Positions 48,002-64,000 are shown, counted from the stretch's first letter. The stretch: DNA of 64,000 bases from Azolla caroliniana (GCA_043228905.1 JBHGNT010000020.1:11346001-11410000), one strand, 5' to 3'. The notes: a model not told the origin generated them from the letters alone. Translations and numbers: made by a program.

Positions 48002-51000
48002 TGTTGAGATACAAGCTCAACATTGGCCGGATCAGCTGTGCAAACCGAGAACCGGATCGGTTGGGACCGATCGATTAGGCCGGACCGGTGCGTAACGAGA
48101 GGCCGTATCGGTGCGTAAACCGAAAGGTCGTTAGAGAGATATTCCTCGTAAGGAATAGTTTTGGGAGTAAGTGTCGAGGCTCATTTATGAGCAGTCAAGT
48201 ATTGTCAGTACTTGTGTTAGCCCATTGTCAGGGCTTGTATAAAAGGTGCTCACTGAGCACGATGTATGTATAGAGAGTTAGTATTTTTTAATAGAGTTTC
48301 TGTGTGTTCTCTCTCTGTCTCTCCCGCGTATTGTGTGTTCAATCTCTCCATTAAACCTGTGTATCTTCTGCATTTTGTCTTCTATTTTGCTTCTGCACGC
48401 TACTTTTTACATGGTATTAGAGCGCGAGGGTTGAGATCCTCTACAGCCAACATAGCTTGAAAGAAAAACCAACCAAGAAGAATAGGTAAAACCGATGGAT
48501 AGAGGCATGGCTAGCTCGCTTCCAACAGAGAAGCTCGACATAAACAACTACGTGTCTTGGTCTTACAAGATGCACCAATACTTGCTCGGGCACGGTTACT
48601 GGAGCTATGTTGATGGAGCAAACGACACAACACCCGAATCGTCACACAGAGATTTCCCGGCGTGGGAACAGTCGACGAGTAGAGTATTGTACTGCTTCGC
48701 GTCTTGTGTGGGCGAACAACTCCTAAGCTACATTCGGGATGCGAAAATGCCAAAGGATGCTTGGGGAAATCTGAAGAAGATTTTCGCCGCGAGCACCACA
48801 ACCAGGAAGCTTCAACTCCGACAGGAGCTGAGCAACCTACGACAATGCGACTTGTCGGTGGCTGATTACACCTCGAAGATCAAAGATATATGCGACTCCT
48901 TAGCCTCCATCGATGTGAACATCGAGGAAGGCGAGATGGTGCAGATCTGTCTAGAGGGACTGGCGTCGAAGTTCGGAGCGTTCCGAACTGCTATGTGTAC
49001 ACGGGAGAATACATCGTCGTTTTTCAACCTATAGTCAATGCTCCTTATAGAGGAGAACCACGTGGGTGCATCGACAAGCACGCATGTTGATAGCAAGATG
49101 CTGTAAACAGAGGGAGATAAGCCCCGTGGTCGTGGTGGACGAGGCGAGTCGGTACGCAATGAAGGCGGCCGACGGGATCAAGGAAAAAGGCATCGAAGTG
49201 ATGCCGACAGCAATTCCGGACCCTCCGGAAACAGGGGGAGTTGAGGCGACGAGAACCGGAAAGGGAAATCCGTCGCGGAATGCTGGTACTATGGCAAGAA
49301 AGGCCATAGGGAGAGCGAGTGTTGGAAAAAGCGTGCCGATTCGGAGAGAGCCAGGTCCGGATCAGGCTCCGGATAGACCGACAAAGGAAATCGACAGCGA
49401 TCGCACTACGCCGAAGGATCCGGAAAAGGGTCAGTCTTCGTGACGAGACACAAAACAAACTCGATGAAAAAGATCACCCCGAAGTCGGACGAGGTGTGGT
49501 ACGCCAACTCCGGCGTGTCAAACCATATGACGTGCCACGAGGAGTGTTCTCATACCTTGAGAAACCGACGCAACCGGGAGTAGTCGCAACCGGAGACGAC
49601 ACCCTACATCTGATCGCGAATGTCAGTGAAGTTCCCTTGAGCCATGTCGGGCAGAAAGGGAAACTCATGAATGTGTTACACGTCCTGACAATCACAAAGA
49701 ACCTAGTGTCGGTCGGGCAGATCGTCGACCACGGGATGCAATTTCAGTTTACGCACCTTAGGTGCTTCATCGAGGAAGAAGGCCAGATTATTGCACAAGG
49801 GCATAGAGATGGGAGGATGTTTATCCTCGACTCTAGTGACGGTGGCACCGCAATGTTCGCGAAAGGACAAAAAGTCGAGTCGGATATCGACTTATGGCAC
49901 AAGCGGATAGGCCACGTCAACTATCAACAGCTTCATGACCTGCAATCGAAACAGGTGGTGTTCGGATTGCCCAAATTTAGTGGCCGGAAGGCACAAATTT
50001 GTGAAGCCTGCCAGCGAGGGAAGCAACACCGACTTCCTTTCCCTAACGAGCGTAATCGGAGCCGGAACAAGCTCGACTTGATACATTCCGATGTATGGGA
50101 GCCGACACAGAACGTTCTATTGGGCCGAGGTGGTACGAACCACGATATACATCTAGAATCGGATCGGAGACAAAGTGTCGGTGCATGAGCAGTATTTCGG
50201 AAGGAAGCCGAACCTGCGACACTTGAGAGTCTTCGGTAGCATTGCGTATGTGCATGTGCCAAGGGAGAAACGGAGGAAGTTGGACGCGAAAGTCGAGAAG
50301 TGTATCTTGGTCGGCTATTCGGACGAGCTGAAGGGTTATAAGTGTTATGACCCTCGCACCAAACAAGCGCGCGTGAGTTCCGACGTTGTGTTTGACGAGT
50401 CCACGTCCTGGTACTTGCCTCTGACTCTAGACCTCACCTCGAATCCGAGTTTTGATGATGAGGTCAGTGAGGCCGAGATGCTTACGAATGCGCCTGAAAT
50501 CGGGACCCGCGAAGAGAGTCCGATTTCGTTTTGGTTAAGCGAACCGAATGGACGACTGAGTCGGTTCGACTAGTCCGATGAAGAGCCGGCGAGTAGTGGA
50601 GACTCGGTCGTGCATTCCCCGCGCAGGAAGCCGAGGAGACGGCTTACGCGCAAAGAAAAATAGAAGAAGAAGGTGTCGGATTACGGCACGGATAGGAATG
50701 AGTCGGATCGTCGCATGTCTGACTCTGAGGGAAGTGACGACGGGTCTTTAAGAGCGAAGTCAGCGTCGGCCATGAAAGCCTCAACATCGGCTAATGAGCA
50801 ATTACGCCGATCAACCCACCAGAAGAACCCTGTTGTGCGGTTCGGTTACAATGAGTACATGGCGCATCACTATGCGTACATGACGCGTGTAGCGGAAGTG
50901 CGTGAGTCGGAGAGCTACGTAGAAGCGGCGAAGGACACGAATTGGCGTGCCGCAATGGAGGAAGAGATGCGCGCACTAGCCGAAAATGAAACTTGGGACC

Positions 51001-53402
51001 TAGTTGATGCACCGAAGGGTGTGAAGCCAATCGGATGCAAGTGGGTGTACAAGGTCAAGTACAACACCGACGACTCGGTCAACCGATACAAGGCCCGGTT
51101 AGTAGCGAAAGGCTATGCGCAAAAACACTACATCGACTACGATGAGACGTTTGCGCTGGTCGCGAAGATGACGACCGTCTGTGTTTTGCTCACGGTAGCT
51201 GCGGCAACGGGGTGGCACTTACATCAGATGGATGTAAAGAATGCGTTCCTGCAAGGTGAGCTTGAGGAACAGGTGTACATGGTACAACCCCCCGGATTTC
51301 ACTCCGGAACGAACACTTCGGCGGTGTGCTGATTGAAGAAGTCCCTTTACGGACTAAAGCAAGCCCCGCGTGCCTGGAACGCGAAGATCACGCAGCAGCT
51401 GCATCGGATGGGCTTTGCGGTGTCGAAATCGGATTCCTCACTGTTCATCCGGAAAGGTCGACTCGGGCCGGTTAGTATTTTACTTTATGTTGATGACTTG
51501 GTCATCACCGACGTTGACCTGGGTGAAATTGACCGCGTCAAGATCCAGCTTGCGGCATCATTCGACATGAAGGATCTGGGGGACCTTCATTACTTCCTCG
51601 GGATCGAAGTGATCCGCACCCCCGAAGGCATACGATCAGCCAACGACATTATGTGCTGAGTATGCTCTTCAAATTTGGGATGGCCGACTGTAAGTCCGTC
51701 TCGACTCCTCTGGATAGAACCGTCAAGCTTCGCCCCGACTCCAGAAAGGTATGTGATCCGATGAGGTTCCGACAAATAGTCGGAAGCCTTATATACTTGA
51801 CCATCACCCGACCAGATCTTAGCTACCCGGTCGGGGTGATTAGTCAGTTCATGGCGCGACCGACCAAGGAGCACCTTTAGTGCGCACAACGCGTACTCCA
51901 ATACGTCAGTGGCACTAAGGACCGGGGGCTACTATATCGGGCCGATACTGTCGCGCAGTTGGTCGGTTACACCGATGCTGATTGGGCCGGAAACGCCAAC
52001 GATCGCCGATCCACGTTCGGTTTCACGTTCTCTCTCGGGAGTGCCGCGATCGCGTGGAGTAACAAGAAGCAGCCAATAGTTGTGCTGTCGAGCACCGAGG
52101 CCGAGTATAGAGGAGCGGCTGTCGCGACATGCGAAGCCATATGGTTGAAGCGGCTACTTAAGGATCTGCAGGTGGAGGTGTCTGATCCAACGACCATCTA
52201 CTGCGACAACCTCAGCAGCATCCAGCTCGCAAAGAACCCCGCTTTCAACGCCCAGACTAAGCACATTGAGGTGCACTACCATTTTGTCTACGAGCGTGTA
52301 CTCTCTTGTGAAGTCGAACTTCAGTATGATCCGATGGATCGGCAGACCGCCGACATCTTCACCAAGCCTCTTGGTCTCGACAAGTTGCGGCAATTCTCGG
52401 GTGCGCTTGGGTTGCGTCACCTCGACGTACTGAACTTAAGGGGGAGAGATGTCCTGAATGACCACGGAAGGGGGAGAGAAATTCCAGAAGACCGTGACGC
52501 CGAGTCGGATGACGAATTCGATTTCGGATCGGTTGAAGAAGCCGAGGGCGGATCTGCGGAAGAGTCCGAAAGCGGACATAAGGGGAGCAGTCAAAAGGAA
52601 GAGCCGAAGCCAACCAAGCATGGGGGAGACGAAGCCATCAAGGGAAAGAAGATTGAAGACAAGTTGGAGACAACCAACTCGGATGAGAGCGAAAATCGAT
52701 CGGAGGAAGCCGAGTCAGTTCGGATGTTTGATTCGGATACGCTGAATCAACCGAGGGCCAAGCGGAAGAGAAGGCAGCAGAAGAGGCGCCAACACCGCAA
52801 CAGCAAGGAAGCTGAGAAGGGCCGTGTGAGCAGACAAGCCGACCGAAAGGGTCGAGGCGCGCGGAATCGAACGGGTCGAGGAGCGCGAGCAAGGTGTGAA
52901 GCCAGAAGGAACCGGAACGTAGATCCGGAAGAGCGGATGGAACCTCAAGTTGAGCTTGAGGGGGAGTGTTGAGATACAAGCTCAACATTGGCCGGATCGG
53001 CTGTGCAAACCGAGAACCGGATTGGTTGGGACCAATCGGTTAGGCCGGACCGGTGCGTAAAACGGATACGCAAACCGGTGCGTAACGAGAGGCCATATCA
53101 GTGCGTAAACCGAAAGGCAGTTAGAGAGATATTCCTCATAAGGAATAGTTTTGGGAGTAAGTGTCGAGGCTCATTTATGAGCAGTCAAGTATTGCCAGTA
53201 CTTGTGTCAGCCCATTGTCAAGGCTTGTATAAAAGGTGCTCACTGAGCACGATGTATGTACAGAGAGTTAGTATTTTTTAATAGAGTTTCTGTGTGTTCT
53301 CTCTCTGTCTCTCCCGCGTACTTTGTGTTCAATCTCTCCATTAAACCTGTGTATCTTCTGCGTTTTGTCTTTCTATTTTGCTTCCGCATGCTACTTTTTA
53401 CA
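48002..53402 (+). mobile_element. Ty1/copia element with both LTRs (48002-48411, 52967-53402); defective
   Basis: TG..CA LTRs differ by roughly 15-20 substitutions plus a ~24 bp indel, judged by eye. PBS TGGTATTAGAGC at 48412; PPT at 52958-52966; TSD GATGT / GATGC. Gag, CCHC knuckle, gag-pre-integrase, RT and RNase H are present with stops. The integrase core is deleted near 50115. Confidence 0.95.
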
Positions 53403-54794: not shown

Positions 54795-56181
54795 TGTTAG
54801 GAAACAGGTCCCTCCGGATGGGAAGTCAGAAGAATAGTATTGATGAGCAAACTCGGCCGAGGCCGAAACCGGATGAGGAATACCTAGCTACGGAAGACCC
54901 GGTGAGAACTGGATGACGAGTACCCGGCTACGGAGAGACGGATGTTGCAGACCCGGTGAGAACCGGATGACGAGTACCCGGCTACGGAGAGCCAGATGGT
55001 GCAGACCCGTTGAGAACCGGATGACGAGTACCCGGCAAGTGCCGGATGATGCAGGCCCGGTGAGGAGTGCTCACCGGATGAAGAGACATATTCGTAAATA
55101 TGTTTCTGAGAGTCCATCGTGGCTATATTTGTAAATAGCCGAAAAATCATATTAGTATAAATATGACTTAGGGCAAACTTTTTGTAAGAGAGTGTGATAG
55201 TGTTGTTGTCATTCTTGTTGGTGCAAGACTTGAGAGCGCAATTGTGTATAGAGAGAGAGAGAGAGAGAGAGAAAGAGACGAAGAGTTCGTATCTCTGTTG
55301 TAACCACCGCCTATGGCAAAGATAGCAAGCTCGAGGTTGTTGCCTCGGTGCTTCACTATTGTACATTCTGATATAGTGATAGTTTGCAGTCTGTGGGCTG
55401 CCGTGGTTTTTCCCTAGTTTGGGTTTTCCACGCTAACATCCTGTGTACTCCTCTCTCCATTGTGTCGTGCTTTCATTTCCCGTTTTTTGTGTATGATTCT
55501 AAGCTCGGTTGTGGCCGAGCCTTGCGCATAGGGAGCGTGCAGTTCCTATCAAAGTGGTATCAGAGCGAAACGACATAGAAAATGGACGATTCGTTGGGAG
55601 GCATGTTCAAGCTCACCGGCTCCAACTATTCGGTGTGGAAGTCGAAGATGAGGAACATGCTCGTGGTTAAAGATCTTTGGTTGCCGGTTCAGTTCGGGGA
55701 CAAGAGACCGGACAAAATTGACGCCACGATATGGGAGGTGATGCACATGAAGACAACGGCGTACATACGGTGCATCATCGACATGAGCCTATACAACAAC
55801 TTCAATGAAGAGAGCAAGGCTCATGAGCTCTGGGAGAAGATCGGCATTATGTTTCAAAACAAAAATGTTGTTAATCAGGTTTCGGTATTCCAGAAGCTAG
55901 TTAGACTCCGGTACCAAGATGGCTCTAGCATGGCGGAGCACATGAATGCCTTCCAGGGGCTGATCCACCAGGCAACATCATTGGAAGTACCTCTCGCCGA
56001 TGAGGTACTAGCGCAACTCCTGCTCGGTTCCCTCTCGGATAGCTGGGAGACGTTGGTTGTCACTTTGGGCAACGCTGGGCCGGAAGGGAAACGGTTATCC
56101 CTAGCAAGAGTGAAGTCGAGCTTGCTAGATGAGGAGGCACGTCGGAAAGATAAGGATACGAGCTCCGACTCCAAAGCGCTT
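54795..56181 (+). mobile_element. Ty1/copia 5' LTR (54795-55551), PBS and gag, interrupted by a gypsy insertion
   Basis: TGTTAGGAA...TTCCTATCA LTR; PBS TGGTATCAGAGC at 55555; gag ORF from 55582 (KLTGSNYSVWKSKM, LLGSLSDSWETLVVTL). About three 54-bp tandem units lie in U3 (54885-55080). Confidence 0.9.
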
Positions 56182-56672
56182 TGTTGCCTCTTAGGAAACA
56201 CAGGCCGTGGTCAGTCCTTCGACCTAGACCCCAAGGTGGGTGTGGAACAACGAACATAGCTTAATCGTACTACGTAAGGAGAGAACCTCTGTGACTCCGC
56301 TGTGTGTAAGGGGAGATGGCTACAACCGACTCCTTCTCACAGGTTGCGCTTACGTACTACTACGATTACGTATCCGAGAAACAGACACTGAATTAGCCGT
56401 AACTATACACAGAAACTCAGAGAAGATAGTATTCTATTATCAGGCGTTCTTTTTTACAATTCCCAGAATTTACAGACACCTCCTTACGAGGTTTTCTGCC
56501 ATTTATATATGCAGGGTCTAATTAGCCGTTCACGCGTACCCGCGTGAACCGTTACATACGTTACGCTTTATATAGTTTCTTATTCCTACGCTTTTGGCCG
56601 TCGGTTACTATTCCGGCGGACAACACCTGGCACGCTTGTGGGACAATGCCTTTGCACGTCGGACCCATCTCG

Positions 56673-59630
56673 TTAATCTTCTTCCAAAATGCCCCGGATG
56701 TTTGGCTCAGTTGTGGTGTCCTTGGCCGGAGTTGATGTAGGGCCCGTAGGAGCATCGTGGTGCGGCTCCTCTACTTGGTCGGCCTGGTTTCTCCTGGAGT
56801 CGCCTTCGCCGTGTGTGGGTGGTTCGGGTACGGTGGGCTCTTCTGTAGTTCGTGGACTAGGCTCCACCGGTAGCGTGCTTGCTGTCGGCTGCTGCTCCGC
56901 CTCTGTTGTTACGTCCTCCGCAGTGTTGGCCGTTTTTGTGTGTCCTTGGGCGTGGGGCGGGGATTCCGCCTGGTCCGCACTATTTTCCGCGTTTTCTGAA
57001 GATGGCGTGGGCGGCGTGGGCTGGACCTTTTGTTGGTTAATCGTTTCGCTGTTTGGTCTTGTGGGGAACTCCGCTCGTTCGTCCCCGTTATTCTCCTCCG
57101 TTGTCCTCGCTGGTGATCGGTCCTGAGGTTCCTCTTCTTCGGCTGGGCCCAGAATTGGTGTGTCGCTGGGTTCCTCGTTTGTATGCGTGTTGCCAGTTTG
57201 TGTGATCTGGTGAAATAGCTCCTCCTGACTTTCACCAAAATCATCTAGGAGTTGTGCGAGTTCTTCAAAGTGTTGGTCTGCTAACGCGCGATAGTCTTGC
57301 GCTAGGTCCTCCCGTACGATCGCAATGCTCTCCTCGTTTAGCTTATAAAACCCTCGGTCGTCTTTCCGCCGGTTCTCCCAGTCCGCACGATACGCGTGCA
57401 ATTCCACTGCTTGGGTTGCCCACGCCATCCATCCTTTGTCCAGCACCGTTTTTAATTGCGTTGTGAACCTTTCCCGGTTGGTTTGGAGAAGGATGCGCAC
57501 GTTATCCGTGATGGCCTGGCAGCGGTTGCGTGCGTCTTCCATCGACTTCTGGAGATTTGCGATTTCCTGTTGTTTAACGGTTGCCGCTTCCTCATACGTG
57601 GCCTTCAAGCCCGCCCACAGCTGGGATTCCTTTTCATGCTATTTTTCTAATTTGCCCATTTCATTGTTTAGGCGGATTTCGAGTTGATGCCGTCTGTCTT
57701 GTTCGACTACCAACTGTTCATCGAACCATACCTTCTTTTTCTCTAATAAGGCCCGAAGCCCCGCTATTGCCGCCTCTGATTTCCTCGCGTCCTCTCGTAA
57801 TTGGGCGTTGTCGTATTTTGTCTGGATGTGCTGTGCCACCTCCATAGCTAGTTTCTCTTCAAGCGTTTTTACAGCTTTTCATCCGTTAGCCCGTATCTCC
57901 TTTTCTCTGTCCGAGGATTGGTGTAGCTCTACTCGAAGGCAGTCAATTTCGGATTCCGCTAGCTGCACAACCCTTTTTGCTTTTGAGGCGATGGCGGTCT
58001 GAGCCTCGATTTCTTCTTTGAGAGCGTCGATAACGTGGTTCGGTGGCGGGGTTTCGTGTTGCGCCGTAGTCGTATGAGCTTCTAACTCAGCGATGCGTGC
58101 GTTGGCCTTTTGTAGTTCGGCTTCGGTCATTTTAACCTTCTTCCAGACATTCTTATTTTTTATGGCCATCTCCTTGGCGCCCGTGTTGACCTTTGCTAGT
58201 TCCCGATGGACTTCAACTAGGGCCGTGTTTAAGGGTGGTATTTCCATCCCTACTCGTCATACCCCAGCGTTCCTCTGTCTACCGACCCTAGCCAACCGGT
58301 CCTCATCGTCGCTCTCCGTTGTTTGTGTTAGGGCGCGCTCTATCATCTGTCGTTCTGCATGCTCCTCGGCCATGCGTTGAGCGGTTTTGACCTGTTGTGC
58401 TGCCAGGAACTCCATGAGCTCGAAAGAGGTCCCGAACTACAAGAGGGCGCTGAATTCGTGGGCCGTATCCGGAATATCCGGATATGCCAAAACCTCGCTT
58501 TCCGCCGTCAATACGGCTTTCCCTCGCTGGGACTGAGTCGTAATAATCGGCCGCGGCTCCCGGATGATTTCGAAGGTGGTACTCGGCTCTGCTGTTGCGG
58601 GGCCTTCACCTGCAGTTGGTGCCTCCGGATCTGTGGGGGTGTTTTTTACCAACCCCCGTCCATCCTTTCTGTCCAATCTACGCCGTTTGGGTCTAGGGCT
58701 TTCCCCACGTGCTTCGGTGGCTGGTTCTGGGGCTGCCTCCAAGGGGTGTCTCGGTTGTTCCTCCTGTGTCGCCCGTATATCCGGTTGGTCGGTAGGAGGT
58801 GTTGTCCTTGGGTCTGGTTGGGCCAGTTGGGGTTCCTCCTCCCATGTTGGGGCCGCTAACTCCGCTAACCTGCGTTTCGCGGAGCGGGGCGGGGCCGTGG
58901 GTTGGCTGCTGGGCTGTGGTGCTGGTAGACCTCGGGGTGGAAACAGTATCGTAAGGTATTGTTGGATGATTGGTCGGAGCTTTTTGCCTGCTTGGTACGC
59001 ATGCGAGCCTTCCCGTAACGCCGGCCCTGTGATGACCCCCCAGTCGACTGTACGCCCCTCAAAGGTGTCGATAATGATGCCCGCCTTCTGTTTAGGCATC
59101 CCGTAAGCATTGACATGGACGCAGCCTACTTCCAGTACGAACTTGGCCACTTCACGGAAGAAGGGATCCGGAATCTGTTTTGTTCTATAGGCTTTGGCGG
59201 AGGATGAGTATGGGCCAAAATATCGTTGCAGCGCCTCTGTAGGAGGTATTTCGAAATGTCTTTCGCCTAGTGAAGATAGGTCTAACTTCTTCCGAATGGA
59301 AGAGTTTGTGACCGTGTCGATGTTAAGCCGCCTGGCGATGTCCATGGCGTCCGGGTGCGGAGGTGCTTCTGCGACCCGAATATAACCATCCAGGCGCTTC
59401 TCCACGAGCCATCGGCGTAGGGCAGTAGAGATGAAGATCGGCATCACCAGGGTAGGTTCGTGGGGAGGCGATGGGTAGTAGTGGTGAGTTAGCGCTCTGA
59501 GATGTGATGGGGAAGAAGGTGAGGAGGAGCGATAGGAGCGCTGATAGCTAGACTCTGTGTTTCTGCTTTGTGCAGAAAACCTTCTATTTCCTTCTTTTTG
59601 TGGCTTAGGGTTCCTTGGGCGGTGAGCCAT
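56673..59630 (-). pseudogene. Disrupted extra ORF (~980 codons) of the gypsy element, same sense as pol
   Basis: Consecutive ORFs of 397, 122, 68 and 311 aa. They contain a globular N-terminal block (..VDWGVITGPALREG), a Pro-rich linker, a long heptad coiled coil, and an acidic Pro/Thr-rich tail. Confidence 0.7.
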
Positions 59631-61522
59631 CGTGGTGCCGCGTGTTCTTGAACTAGGAGTTTGTGCATGCCTTTAGTCGTTTTAATAGTCGCTATCTTCT
59701 CTCTCTCTTTTTTTTTCTTTTTTTCTAACGGTTAGTTACCCCCTATTTTTACATTATAGTACAATTGGGCCTGTCCCTTTTACGTTGCGGGTTCTCCGGC
59801 TTTGTACCGTTCGACGGTGGATGGGTTAGGTGGTGTAGGGCCCAGGTAAGGTTTGAGCCGAAACCCATTCACTTTTTGCCGTACTATTTCTCCAGCCAGT
59901 GTTCCTAGTTGGAACGTGCCCTGTTCCGCTCCAATTATCCAGTATGGGCCGGTCCAGCAGAAACGTAGCTTACACGGCATCTGGCCCATGCGTGTTTGAA
60001 AAACTAGCACCGCTCGGCCCACGACGAACTCCTTTTCCTTTGCGTTCCGATGCCGATCGACAAATGCTTTATGCCGTCGTTGTTCTTCTTCCAACACAAC
60101 CATGTTGTGGACGCGTTTCTCCCCTAGTTCGAGGAGTTGGTAGAGCCGTTCCTCCTCTGACTTGGCTTCTGATAATCGGTTCCGTACCTGAATGCACAAA
60201 CTAGGTACCCGGAATTCGACCGGCATTACCGTTCTAGTCCAAACGCTAGCCGGAACGGTGTTGACCGTATGCTTGTTTTGTAACTAGTTCTGTACGCCCA
60301 TAACGCGCTCTGGAGTTTGGTATCCCAGTCCGTTCTATTTTCATTGATGGTTTTCTTTAAAATGGTCTGTAAAGTTTTGTTCGTGGATTCCGCTAATCCA
60401 TTCGCTTGTGGGTAGTATGGCATGCTTTTCTTGTGGACGACTGTGTAATACTGTGTTAGTTCCCGAACCACTGTATTGAGGAAGTGGCTCCCCTGGTCAC
60501 TTATGAGCTCAATCGGGCAGCCGAACCGGCACCAGATGTGCTCGTACAGAAATTTGGTTGTGACGGTCGTCGTATTTTCCCGTAGTGCCTTTGCTTCTAC
60601 CCATTTGGTACAGTAATCTGTGGCTACCAATATGTATTTGTTACCCGTACGGGCTGCTGTTGGTGTGAAGGGCCCCACAAAATCCAATCCCCACTTTTGG
60701 AAGGGGTCCAGTGGTAGCACGGGCTGGTGTGGCATCCTTGCATCCTTGCATCCTCCGGGGGCTGACCCATCCGCTGGCACAAATCACACTTTCTACAATA
60801 CTCGGATGCGTCCTTCTGTGTTGTTGGCCACCATAAGCCCGCTTGCCATACTTTGTGGGCTGTCACGTTGCCTGCGTAATGGCCGCCGGCCGTGCCGTAG
60901 TGTGCCTCCCGTAACACTGCTTCTTTTTCATCCTGATGGACTCCCCGTCGCCAAATGCCGTCACTTCCTTTGTGATATAAATACCCTTTGACCAGGCAGA
61001 AGTGACGGCTTCGGACGGCTAGTCGTTTCTTCTCGTCTGTGCGTAATTGTGGTGGAGGTAGTCCTATAGAAAAAAGTACATCATTTCCATAAGCCATCGA
61101 TCCGGAAAGGTGGATTCCGTTTTTTCTGCAATCGTCGCTACTCGCCAGATGTCGGCGTCCGGAAAATCGTCGTTGTCTTTCTATACTGTTTCTCCACTCT
61201 CAAGTCTGCTCAAAAAATCCGCCACTGCGTGTTGCGTCCTTGGATGGTGCTGAATTACGAACTCGAATTCCTGGAGCAGCAGCATCCACCGCGCCAATTT
61301 CCCTGTCAGGGCTTGTTTCTCTACCAAATACAATAATGCCGAATGATCCACGTGGGACGTGAATTTCCGTCCTAGTAAATAATGTCGGAATTTATTGATG
61401 CTATAGATCATCCCTAGCGCCTCCCGCTCTGTTGTGGAATAGTTACGCTCTGCTGCTGATAATTTACGACTTGCATAGTATACTGGCCTGTACCAGTTTG
61501 GTTCGGTGAGTTGCATTAGCGC

Positions 61523-62166
61523 TGTCGCGAAGATTCGCGCGTGCGTGTGCTACTCGAGCGACCACCGGGGTCTTGGACTGGGGAGGACGTTCGCGGAATT
61601 ATCGACGCTAGATGACGATCAATGTAAGATTAGATGAAATTGGTTTACTTGAGAAGGAGAAAAATTGTACACTTGAGAAGTAGAAAAACATGAAGAAGAT
61701 AAAGACAAATATAATTATATTGATGATAGTGGTGTTGGTGATATCACATATTGAGCCCCCCTTACACAAGCCCAACTAGAGGCTTTTATAGGTCTTTCCA
61801 TGCTCGTGACATGCACAAAACCATGGGCTAAAACCATGGTTTTGTGCACACGGTTTTGCTTATGTCATGCACAAACCATGGGTTTAAAACCATGGTTTTG
61901 TGCACATGGTTTTCTATGGTTGTTTCGTCTATAATTTGTATATGAAAAGGAAATACATAAAATCTACACTATATGATAGTTGTCCTAGTGGTAAGGCAAT
62001 TATCTTGTATCTTAGAGGTGCAAGGTTCAAACCTTGCTTGCACCCCTCTGTATGAACTCAAGTGCCACTAGGCTAGGTTTATTTGCTAAGTGCATGTGCA
62101 ATGTTGCACATCCTTGGTTTATTCGTCTCACTCGGTTTCACACCGTAGCCAAAAATCGTCACGACA
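61523..62166 (-). mobile_element. Solo-LTR-like insertion (644 bp) in the gypsy RT/RNase H region
   Basis: Ends TGTCG...CGACA with a GCGC duplication on both sides. Removing it restores the in-frame AIGSALMQLTEPNW. Confidence 0.88.
61975..62045 (+). other. tRNA-like / Pol III A-box and B-box segment inside the solo LTR
   Basis: A-box-like TAGTGGTAAGG at 61986; T-arm GCAAGG-TTCAAA-CCTTGC at 62020-62037. There is no proper acceptor or anticodon stem. Confidence 0.55.
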
Positions 62167-64000
62167 GCGCGCTTCCTATTGCTGTGTTCAAGGCGTCGAC
62201 GAACACGTGAAATGGTTTCGCCCAAACTGGAGGTTGTACTACGGGGGCCTGTGTAAGCATTATCTTAAGTGCCTCATATGCCTTATCCTCTGTTGCAGTC
62301 CATTGAAAAGGAGTCCGATGTACGGCAGCATGTAGTGGCGTGGCGAAGTCCGCCAAATACCGTATCATCCGACTATGCCACCGTATTTGGCCCAAAAACC
62401 GGCTAAGTGCTTTGGCATTTGTTGGAGTTTTAGCTTGCGTAATAGCGGTGATCTTGTTTGGGTCGACCGCTATTCCTTCCTTGCTGACTATGTGGCCCAA
62501 GAGAGCCCCGCTGGTCACGCCGAATGCACATTTCGCGGGATTCAGGCTTAAGCGTGCAGTGCGACAACGTTCCAGGCAGAGACGTAGGTGCGAGAAATGG
62601 TCTTTTGTTCGCCCATATACCGCAAAATCGTCTAAAAAGACTTGCATGAACGCCGGAATATATTCCCCAAAGATCTCTGTAATCGTTCGTTGGAATGTTG
62701 TCGGTGTTGTCTTTAGGCTGAACATCATGACGACCACCACATATACTCCCCAGTCCATGACAAATGTCGTCTTCTCCTGGTCGTCAGGGTGCATGTGCAC
62801 TTGGTTATAGCCACTGAAGCCATCTAAGAAATTGTACATCTCATGGCTTGTGACGGCGTCCAACACGCTATCAGTGAAGGGTAAGGGAAATGCGTCCATA
62901 ATGGTTACGGCGTTTAATTTTCGGTAATCCACGCATACCCGTATTTTGCCGTTTCTCTTTGGGACAACCACTATCGGGCTAAGCCATGTCGCTTGTTTTA
63001 CTGGTCATATGAACCCAGCCCTCAGCAGCTTGTCAATTTCTTCTTTCACGCGGGTTGCGTAATTGGGGTTCATGCGGTAGCGACGCTGCTGGACAGGTTT
63101 CGCGTCTGTTGCTAAATTGATCTTATGCTAATAGAACTTGGGATCTAACCCCTTCATGTCCTCATGAGCCCACGCGAACACATCTTTATATTTTGTGAGT
63201 AGTGCGATCATTGTGGTTCTCTGGTCCGGCCTCAATTCCTTTGCTATGGAGAGGAACCGGGGTTCTGATCCCGTACCCACATTCACTTCGTCGAGAGCGG
63301 AAGTGGTGATCCGTCGTGAAATCTCCATTTCCCTTTCGAAGGACGCCCGTGCTCTGCTGAGTTCCAATATGGACTCTGGCTTTGGTTCGTACGGCTCTTC
63401 GCTTGGAACAATGGCCGTAGTATATTCTGTCGTAGTTGTGATGACACCTATCTCGAACAGTGGAATAATCCGAGGATGTTCGTCAAGGTACGCTTCCAAT
63501 TCGGCATCCTCCACCCCAGCCAGCATAATGATGTCTTCCGCATATAACGGTGTTATCCCCTTAGGTTGGGGCGTGTTGCCTTCCGTAGGCACACGAACCT
63601 TGATGCGTCCCTGCCGAAAACTGATACACTCGTGTTGCCAGCTTTGCTTGATATTTGCTGTCCAAAGCCATGGTCTGCCTAGAAGCACTGGGTACGCTCC
63701 AGGCGCGTCCAAAGCGAGGACGATCGCCAATATGTCGAAGCGGTGTTTGCCCACGATGATGCCTAATTTGCGAATTAGCCCCAACGGCCGCACTGATCGG
63801 GTATCTGCCATGCGAAGCCAGAATGGACACGCCTCCCATTCGGAAATGCCTAGCTGTTCGCAAGTTTTCGTGCTAATCACATTGACGCCTGAGCTGCCGT
63901 CGATTACACATCCATGGACTTCCTGTCCGTGCAATATTACTGTAATGGCCGGGTTGTGCTGATCTACCACTGGTGGTCCCTCGCTGACGTCAGTCAGGTT

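Follow-up and report, generated by a model that had tools for sequence, protein, structure and literature searches.

The locus described here raises the question of how an LTR retrotransposon starts its second DNA strand when the place of the polypurine tract (PPT), next to the 3′ LTR, is taken by what looks like a tRNA primer-binding site (PBS) facing the wrong way. In Ty3 and in the retroviruses the plus strand is primed at the PPT, as set out in the available portions of the relevant sources (PMC5371799; PMC3185662; PMC12789967). The window, that is the whole stretch of 64,000 nt analysed, is JBHGNT010000020.1:11346001-11410000 of Azolla caroliniana (GCA_043228905.1). A preliminary description of this DNA had proposed either that a tRNA annealed to the minus-strand cDNA primes the second strand or that the coding region is inverted relative to LTR and PBS. 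Three findings support the first proposal: the site is conserved, a PPT is missing, and tRNA is joined to U3 sequence at five junctions. The second proposal is refuted.

Table 1. Features of the element in the window (positions from the first nucleotide of the window)
Feature	Position	Strand	Remarks
3′ LTR, TGTTG..CAACA	56182..56625	-	444 bp, TG..CA; U3 starts at 56625
TATATAAA in the LTR, sense orientation, candidate promoter motif	56502..56509; second 56567-56574	-	motif search
Spacer CC between tRNA site and U3	56626..56627	-	2 nt, from the sequence; presumably the dinucleotide trimmed by integrase
Predicted second-strand primer-binding site, core block, TGGCACGCTTGTGGGAC	56628..56644	+	complementary to tRNA-Arg(UCU) nt 59-76 except for a one-base gap
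Insert with 4-bp hairpin	56645..56658		14 nt, between tRNA positions 58 and 59
Second block of tRNA site	56659..56668	+	complementary to tRNA nt 49-58 (5′ strand of the T-arm plus loop)
Extra 3′ ORF 2, coiled-coil	56673..58375	-	broken in the window copy; open pieces of 321 and 125 aa
Extra 3′ ORF 1	58437..59630	-	about 397 aa counted from the first ATG
pol: protease-like region, RT, RNase H, integrase	59780..64000	-	frameshifts and stops

LTR, spacer, motif and ORF stop lie where the preliminary description had put them (Table 1). Profile comparison across the window confirmed that pol and the extra ORFs, of which there are two, are all on the minus strand. The LTR reads in the same direction: none of the TATA forms searched occurs on its plus strand, and its minus strand carries TATATAAA at 56509 and 56574. 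The core block can be read on the minus-strand cDNA, which corresponds to the plus strand of the window. The stop codon of extra ORF 2 is only 4 nt away from the tRNA site, and no Pfam family scored above the cut-off for this ORF. Extra ORF 1 likewise has no Pfam family and no Atlas match at 0.9; it is 85-95% conserved among five sister copies.

Gag and the 5′ end of the element lie beyond the window edge. We found the other LTR 1.8 kb past it, at G000:C20:11411808-11412245, as a direct repeat with 97.9% identity over 438 nt. Beyond it, in the sense of gag and pol, follow a 4-nt spacer, an ordinary PBS of 14 nt matching tRNA-Arg(UCU), and then gag; this PBS pattern is present in 29 of 30 loci. 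Nothing in the element is therefore inverted; its two tRNA sites face inward, and a PPT is absent. The target site duplication (TSD) CGCTT that had been expected is missing because the far junction of this copy is rearranged: the 5′ LTR has lost its outer 6 nt, and the target is duplicated over about 253 bp at 97.6%. The element is inserted in a copia gag (window 55579-56181 and L031:3245-3497), with no 5-bp TSD. A complete copia-type element with LTRs 96% identical lies just to the left, at window 48002-53371. The RNase H region of pol is interrupted at about 61522-62161 by a foreign insert of 640 bp with TG..CA ends and an apparent 5-bp TSD, which is probably a solo LTR from another family.

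Is the missing PPT a property of the family or of this copy? In all of the 30 copies fetched, homology starts at 56182 next to unrelated flanks, so that the LTR boundary is fixed. The 17-nt site lies 2 nt from the LTR in 30 of 30, with 0-2 mismatches to its commonest form. Within 30 nt of U3 the purines form runs no longer than 3-7 nt, depending on the copy; these 30 copies were chosen by similarity to a query containing the site and are not an independent sample. Altogether, the longest run was 3-7 nt at 60 of 60 junctions, each with a tRNA site where a PPT would be expected. The ends of three distant comparators are rich in G/A, and their runs measure 6, 9 and 13, so run length alone does not set the weakest of them apart. 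Five full-length sister copies of the same family (family A) carry both tRNA sites, and their 5-bp TSD is exact in four and has one mismatch in the fifth; two elements of other families (L232 and L241) are flanked by 5-bp TSDs too.

For an independent sample, 20 copies were picked by integrase alone from the 150 matches listed. Their 3′ junctions were intact in 10 cases, deleted in one and not located in nine. Among the 10 intact junctions, 8 have the full site, 2 a shortened one ending CGTGCCA-GG, and none a PPT. The two shortened copies (L204-L207; G000:C12:5.47 Mb and C8:15.97 Mb) have a short deletion in common, after which only 7 tRNA-matching nucleotides remain before the spacer, possibly a minimal site. 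Since a subfamily with only 7 matching nucleotides persists (2 of 10 junctions), the long split pairing appears to be dispensable. The caveats attached to the preliminary description do not apply: the LTR does not run past 56625 into a PPT, the other copies examined carry none there, the motif has its match among host tRNAs and the arrangement is no one-off.

The anatomy extends well beyond family A. The pattern of gapped site, 2 nt and LTR start has 1,617 exact matches in the genome, next to many different U3 starts, against none for a reversed control, which excludes chance. Ten loci were inspected for pol: 6 have it upstream in the sense orientation, and none was seen at the other 4. The 5′ PBS matches tRNA-Arg(UCU) in families A and C and tRNA-Arg(UCG) in families B and E, and yet the 3′ site of B and E is of the Arg(UCU) type. 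An element of 2.5 kb that gave no pol matches (L381-L382, G000:C2:12.74 Mb) combines an Arg(UCG) 5′ PBS with an Arg(UCU) 3′ site at a 4-nt spacer, which indicates that non-autonomous partners retain the 3′ site. Family C and its relatives (L141-L142, L380, L378) have an unusually long spacer of 8-12 nt between U5 and 5′ PBS. In family D (L363, L364, L120) the Arg(UCU) site is complete at 18 nt, and its spacer measures 2 nt.

The reverse transcriptases of the dual-site families fall into one clade (11 rows, support 100/99), separate from the Tat proteins bearing PF13456; nearer neighbours include fern and liverwort proteins. The clade also lies apart from the comparison rows that we labelled Athila by their PBS motif. 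The elements have gag followed by RT, RNase H and integrase, direct TG..CA LTRs, a short TSD and a host-tRNA PBS, as is typical of Ty3/gypsy (Metaviridae) elements, and the window LTR is the 3′ LTR of a non-chromovirus member. The archaeal-type RNase H (PF13456) is absent from the pieces in the window and from the six closest proteins, and hence the element does not belong to Tat. An Arg instead of an Asp PBS, together with the separate RT clade, excludes Athila. The 5-bp TSD and Arg PBS are unlike Phygy and Selgy, which have a 4-bp TSD and a tRNA-Trp or tRNA-Ala PBS. The dual-site anatomy is lineage-wide within one genome, that of Azolla caroliniana. The site motif had no match in viral and prokaryotic contig collections. 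A first metagenome scan for relatives returned nothing; a second gave 79 loci, among which the two close relatives are without their 3′ ends. In three distant metagenome elements, for which both LTRs could be located, the 3′ junction is purine-rich and lacks a tRNA tail. The viral collection gave one distant match.

The match of the 3′ site to the tRNA is extensive. Host genes for tRNA-Arg(UCU) are present in several isodecoders and bear out the assignment made in the preliminary description, except for a one-base gap in the site. The site corresponds to tRNA nt 59-76 minus one base, then an insert of 13-14 nt, then nt 49-58. The insert forms a hairpin in which two of the four pairs show changes on both sides, and 94.7% of 76 cells are paired (19 rows). 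Its covariation score was reached by none of 500 shuffles; the 19 rows are related to one another. With RNA parameters, the predicted duplex of tRNA and site has -45.3 kcal/mol as compared to -18.4 +/- 3.6 when the site is shuffled. Among 54 distinct tRNA calls, which come from the fetched loci and not from the full host repertoire, the best true non-Arg tRNA reaches -37.4 kcal/mol. A call of 'Tyr' at -43.5 was rejected as an artefact over an Arg fossil. Folded alone the site is no better than shuffles (z 0.9 to -1.4). Elsewhere in the genome (L123-L129, G000:C11:0.69-0.70 Mb) there is a tandem array of tRNA-Arg(UCU) genes with two isodecoders.

If a tRNA starts the second strand, copies of it may occasionally be left at the U3 end. 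We searched for such fossils in two ways. A mature tRNA tail including CCA gave 35 matches, and 30 were fetched. Eight are tRNA genes; the other 22, which represent 20 events, join a tRNA piece of 26-76 nt to an LTR end. This end is U5 in 16 events (13 assigned by LTR identity, 3 likely) and U3 in 2, and 2 events were counted at neither. The ungapped 18-mer followed by 2 nt and an LTR start gave 9 matches compared with the 1,617 of the gapped form: one family-B junction three times, one family-C junction twice, one match each in families B′ and A, and two in family D. Because their LTR end is ambiguous the family-D matches (L120, L363, L364) were kept out of the U3 count, and L122 was also left unplaced. 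With both searches pooled, five independent U3 junctions carry ungapped tRNA-Arg(UCU) with CCA. One fossil matches a host isodecoder over 57 nt without mismatch and another over 56 nt with two mismatches, including A58>T. Of the 18-nt fossils, two have no mismatch (to two isodecoders) and one has two transitions. Compared without gaps, the fossil 18-mers differ from the templates of their own elements at 4-7 of 18 positions. From these five genomic junctions we read, indirectly, that a tRNA was probably joined covalently to the start of the plus strand.

Three clear fossils lie directly outside a 5′ LTR (C2:12.74 Mb, C20:0.88 Mb and C16:17.53 Mb), and in each of these elements the own 3′ site is gapped. 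The one at C16:17.53 Mb is an LTR-LTR joint with the order U5, spacer, 18 nt of tRNA, AG and U3. The other two cases are ambiguous: at C2:12.0 Mb the fossil is preceded by an internal piece of a non-autonomous element, and the locus at C3:21.70 Mb is rearranged and has 3 flanking bases in common with the template. Reverse transcriptase is described to halt at the methylated A58 of the tRNA primer in the accessible text of PMC3185662, and the 18-nt length of the fossils fits such a stop. A base other than A is found at position 58 in 3 of 20 read-through events. The U3 fossils are rare, and the five events could record an occasional rather than a routine route.

The copies of the first-strand primer bear on the polarity of the genome. 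If it is a sense RNA, plus-strand strong-stop DNA gives rise to the 5′ LTR, and copies of the first primer should come to lie inside this LTR and those of the second primer outside it. In 13 of the 16 U5-type events the element interior follows directly behind; 3 could not be placed, and none was shown to lie outside a 3′ LTR. These first-strand copies inside the 5′ LTR point to a sense RNA genome. Of the 34 matches of a 5′-PBS pattern, 29 are complete tRNA copies of 18 nt, with six variants among them; this fraction reflects a pattern which picks mostly 18-nt forms and has no denominator of normal PBSs. One copy was checked in place. On an LTR tree of 41 rows the isodecoder label is clustered and mostly inherited with at least two forced switches, and overwriting of the 5′ PBS is therefore occasional. 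The 3′ site, unlike the overwritten 5′ PBS, remains gapped. Whole 76-nt tRNA-Arg(UCU) copies with CCA are found at the 5′ PBS of five loci (L109, L116, L117, L131, L133), where ARAGORN calls them tRNA genes; they are retrocopied tRNA pseudogenes from primer read-through. Read-through copies of tRNA-Arg(UCG) with CCA fused to LTR ends occur at L389, L393 and L395, and L393 matches the U5 end of family B.

We suggest that replication could proceed in the following steps. The sense RNA would serve as genome, and its minus strand would be started by a tRNA at the observed 5′ PBS, as the primer copies written into this PBS suggest. After the first jump the minus strand would copy the 3′ site and RNase H would clear the RNA, as in the standard scheme. 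Then tRNA-Arg(UCU) could anneal to the freed DNA by a predicted pairing that comprises about 27 bp split over two blocks; one base of the tRNA would bulge, and the template hairpin, for which covariation is observed, would loop out at A58/G59. Reverse transcriptase would extend the CCA end across the 2-nt spacer into U3-R-U5, which is the joint seen in the fossils. The second jump would turn this strong-stop DNA into the 5′ LTR, and the primer would normally be removed, presumably by RNase H. A primer that escapes removal would be copied by the minus strand, usually up to the stop at A58, and leave tRNA sequence outside the 5′ LTR; this is where three clear and two ambiguous cases are found. 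One objection to a tRNA-primed plus strand is that a tRNA annealed to DNA should itself be a substrate of RNase H. Speculatively, the gap and the hairpin may protect the hybrid before extension.

This lineage has no PPT, and on these grounds we consider it likely that the inverted tRNA-Arg(UCU) site beside its 3′ LTR lets a host tRNA prime the plus strand. Hardly less probable is the wider reading: that the whole clade of Ty3/gypsy elements gave up PPT priming, host tRNAs starting both strands, two different ones in some families, with the second docking on the single-stranded cDNA through a split site with a hairpin at A58.

Other explanations have to be weighed against tRNA priming of the plus strand. 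The routine primer might be the own RNA of the element, a tRNA mimic ending in CCA that survives RNase H in the manner of a PPT, with a real tRNA used only sometimes. The sense RNA does resemble the 3′ arm of a tRNA, a T-stem is possible in 85% of cells, the mimic sits exactly at the position of a PPT and the U3 fossils are rare. However, all five fossils are tRNA sequence and not the gapped template. Moreover, the intramolecular T-stem has no covariation, and 4 of 19 rows have lost its innermost pair through changes with which a tRNA on the DNA strand could still form wobble pairs. A self primer of this kind would leave no distinguishable fossil, and for this reason DNA alone does not discriminate; we hold it to be unlikely.

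Much less probable is an RNA genome that is antisense, or of either strand. The first strand would then begin in the normal way at the inverted site, and the sense PBS would be used for the second strand. In favour, the element is symmetric in its anatomy, and such a genome would likewise give a joint of tRNA and U3. It predicts, however, tRNA copies beside the 3′ LTR, and they are seen beside the 5′ LTR, 13 inside and 3 clearly outside. It also predicts repair of the gap at the 3′ site, yet it is the 5′ PBS that is overwritten; furthermore the TATA motifs are on the sense strand. Even so, replication of an antisense genome would still be dual tRNA priming. Slightly less credible again is a scheme modelled on Ty1 CYC- or Tf1-like systems, in which the 3′ motif pairs with the 5′ PBS of the same RNA, circularises it or primes it, and the plus strand starts unspecifically. 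The motif of family A can indeed pair with its own PBS at -26.5 kcal/mol, but the Arg(UCG) PBS of family B pairs at -18.8, the level of shuffles. Families B and E nevertheless keep the Arg(UCU) motif, which rules out own-PBS pairing as its purpose, and the tRNA fused to U3 would be left unexplained. A one-off rearrangement or an inverted coding region, for which only the rearranged far junction of the window copy speaks, is refuted by the normal sense PBS at the other LTR, the TSD-flanked sister copies and the 1,617 sites in several families, and its probability is close to nil.

How does tRNA priming of the plus strand compare with known systems? As in canonical Ty3/gypsy elements and retroviruses we find gag-PR-RT-RH-INT, TG..CA LTRs and a tRNA-primed minus strand (described in the accessible parts of PMC5371799, PMC3185662 and PMC12789967), a primer site that abuts U3, and a tRNA copied up to A58 (PMC3185662, in part). 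Unlike these systems, the Azolla element has no PPT and in its place the complement of a tRNA on the minus strand. The bipartite or double PBS of Ty3 (PMC5371799) and Drosophila gypsy (PMC1635307) is similar in that a second tRNA-binding sequence lies near the 3′ end and pairs with the T-arm. As far as the available text of both sources goes, that second PBS belongs to the sense RNA, pairs with internal stretches of the first-strand primer and leaves the PPT in place. The Azolla 3′ site differs, being antisense, binding the CCA end, which can be that of another tRNA than at the 5′ PBS, and replacing the PPT.

Among the plant lineages of REXdb (PMC6317226, available portion), TatIII, Ogre and Retand share the tRNA-Arg PBS and the 5-bp TSD, and the non-chromovirus lineages share a non-chromoviral RT and extra ORFs. 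Nevertheless, Athila, Tat (TatI-III, Ogre, Retand), Phygy and Selgy each differ in archaeal RNase H, PBS or TSD. The second-strand primer types are not given in supplementary table 5 of REXdb, so far as that table is available (PMC6317226). Helenus TRIMs also have a tRNA-like sequence within an LTR element; according to the accessible text, however, it acts as a Pol III promoter located in the LTR, and Helenus has a PPT (PMC10886601). We found no description of tRNA-primed plus strands in the open-access literature, and the available part of PMC7472051 holds nothing bearing on them. Supported indirectly by its genomic sequence, the Azolla lineage probably primes its second strand in a way new to Ty3/gypsy.

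Retroviruses and LTR retrotransposons are generally regarded as priming their plus strand at a PPT. Priming by a tRNA would, if true, be a route to the second strand that is undescribed for either group. It raises the questions how RNase H first spares and then removes a DNA-bound tRNA, how the two tRNAs are packaged and in which order they act, and whether reverse transcriptase has a mode of initiating from a tRNA on a DNA template. Annotation based on the PPT misses or misorients dual-tRNA elements, and whole tRNA copies get called tRNA genes. If the mechanism holds, this high-copy and successful lineage would show that the plus-strand priming step can be rewired.
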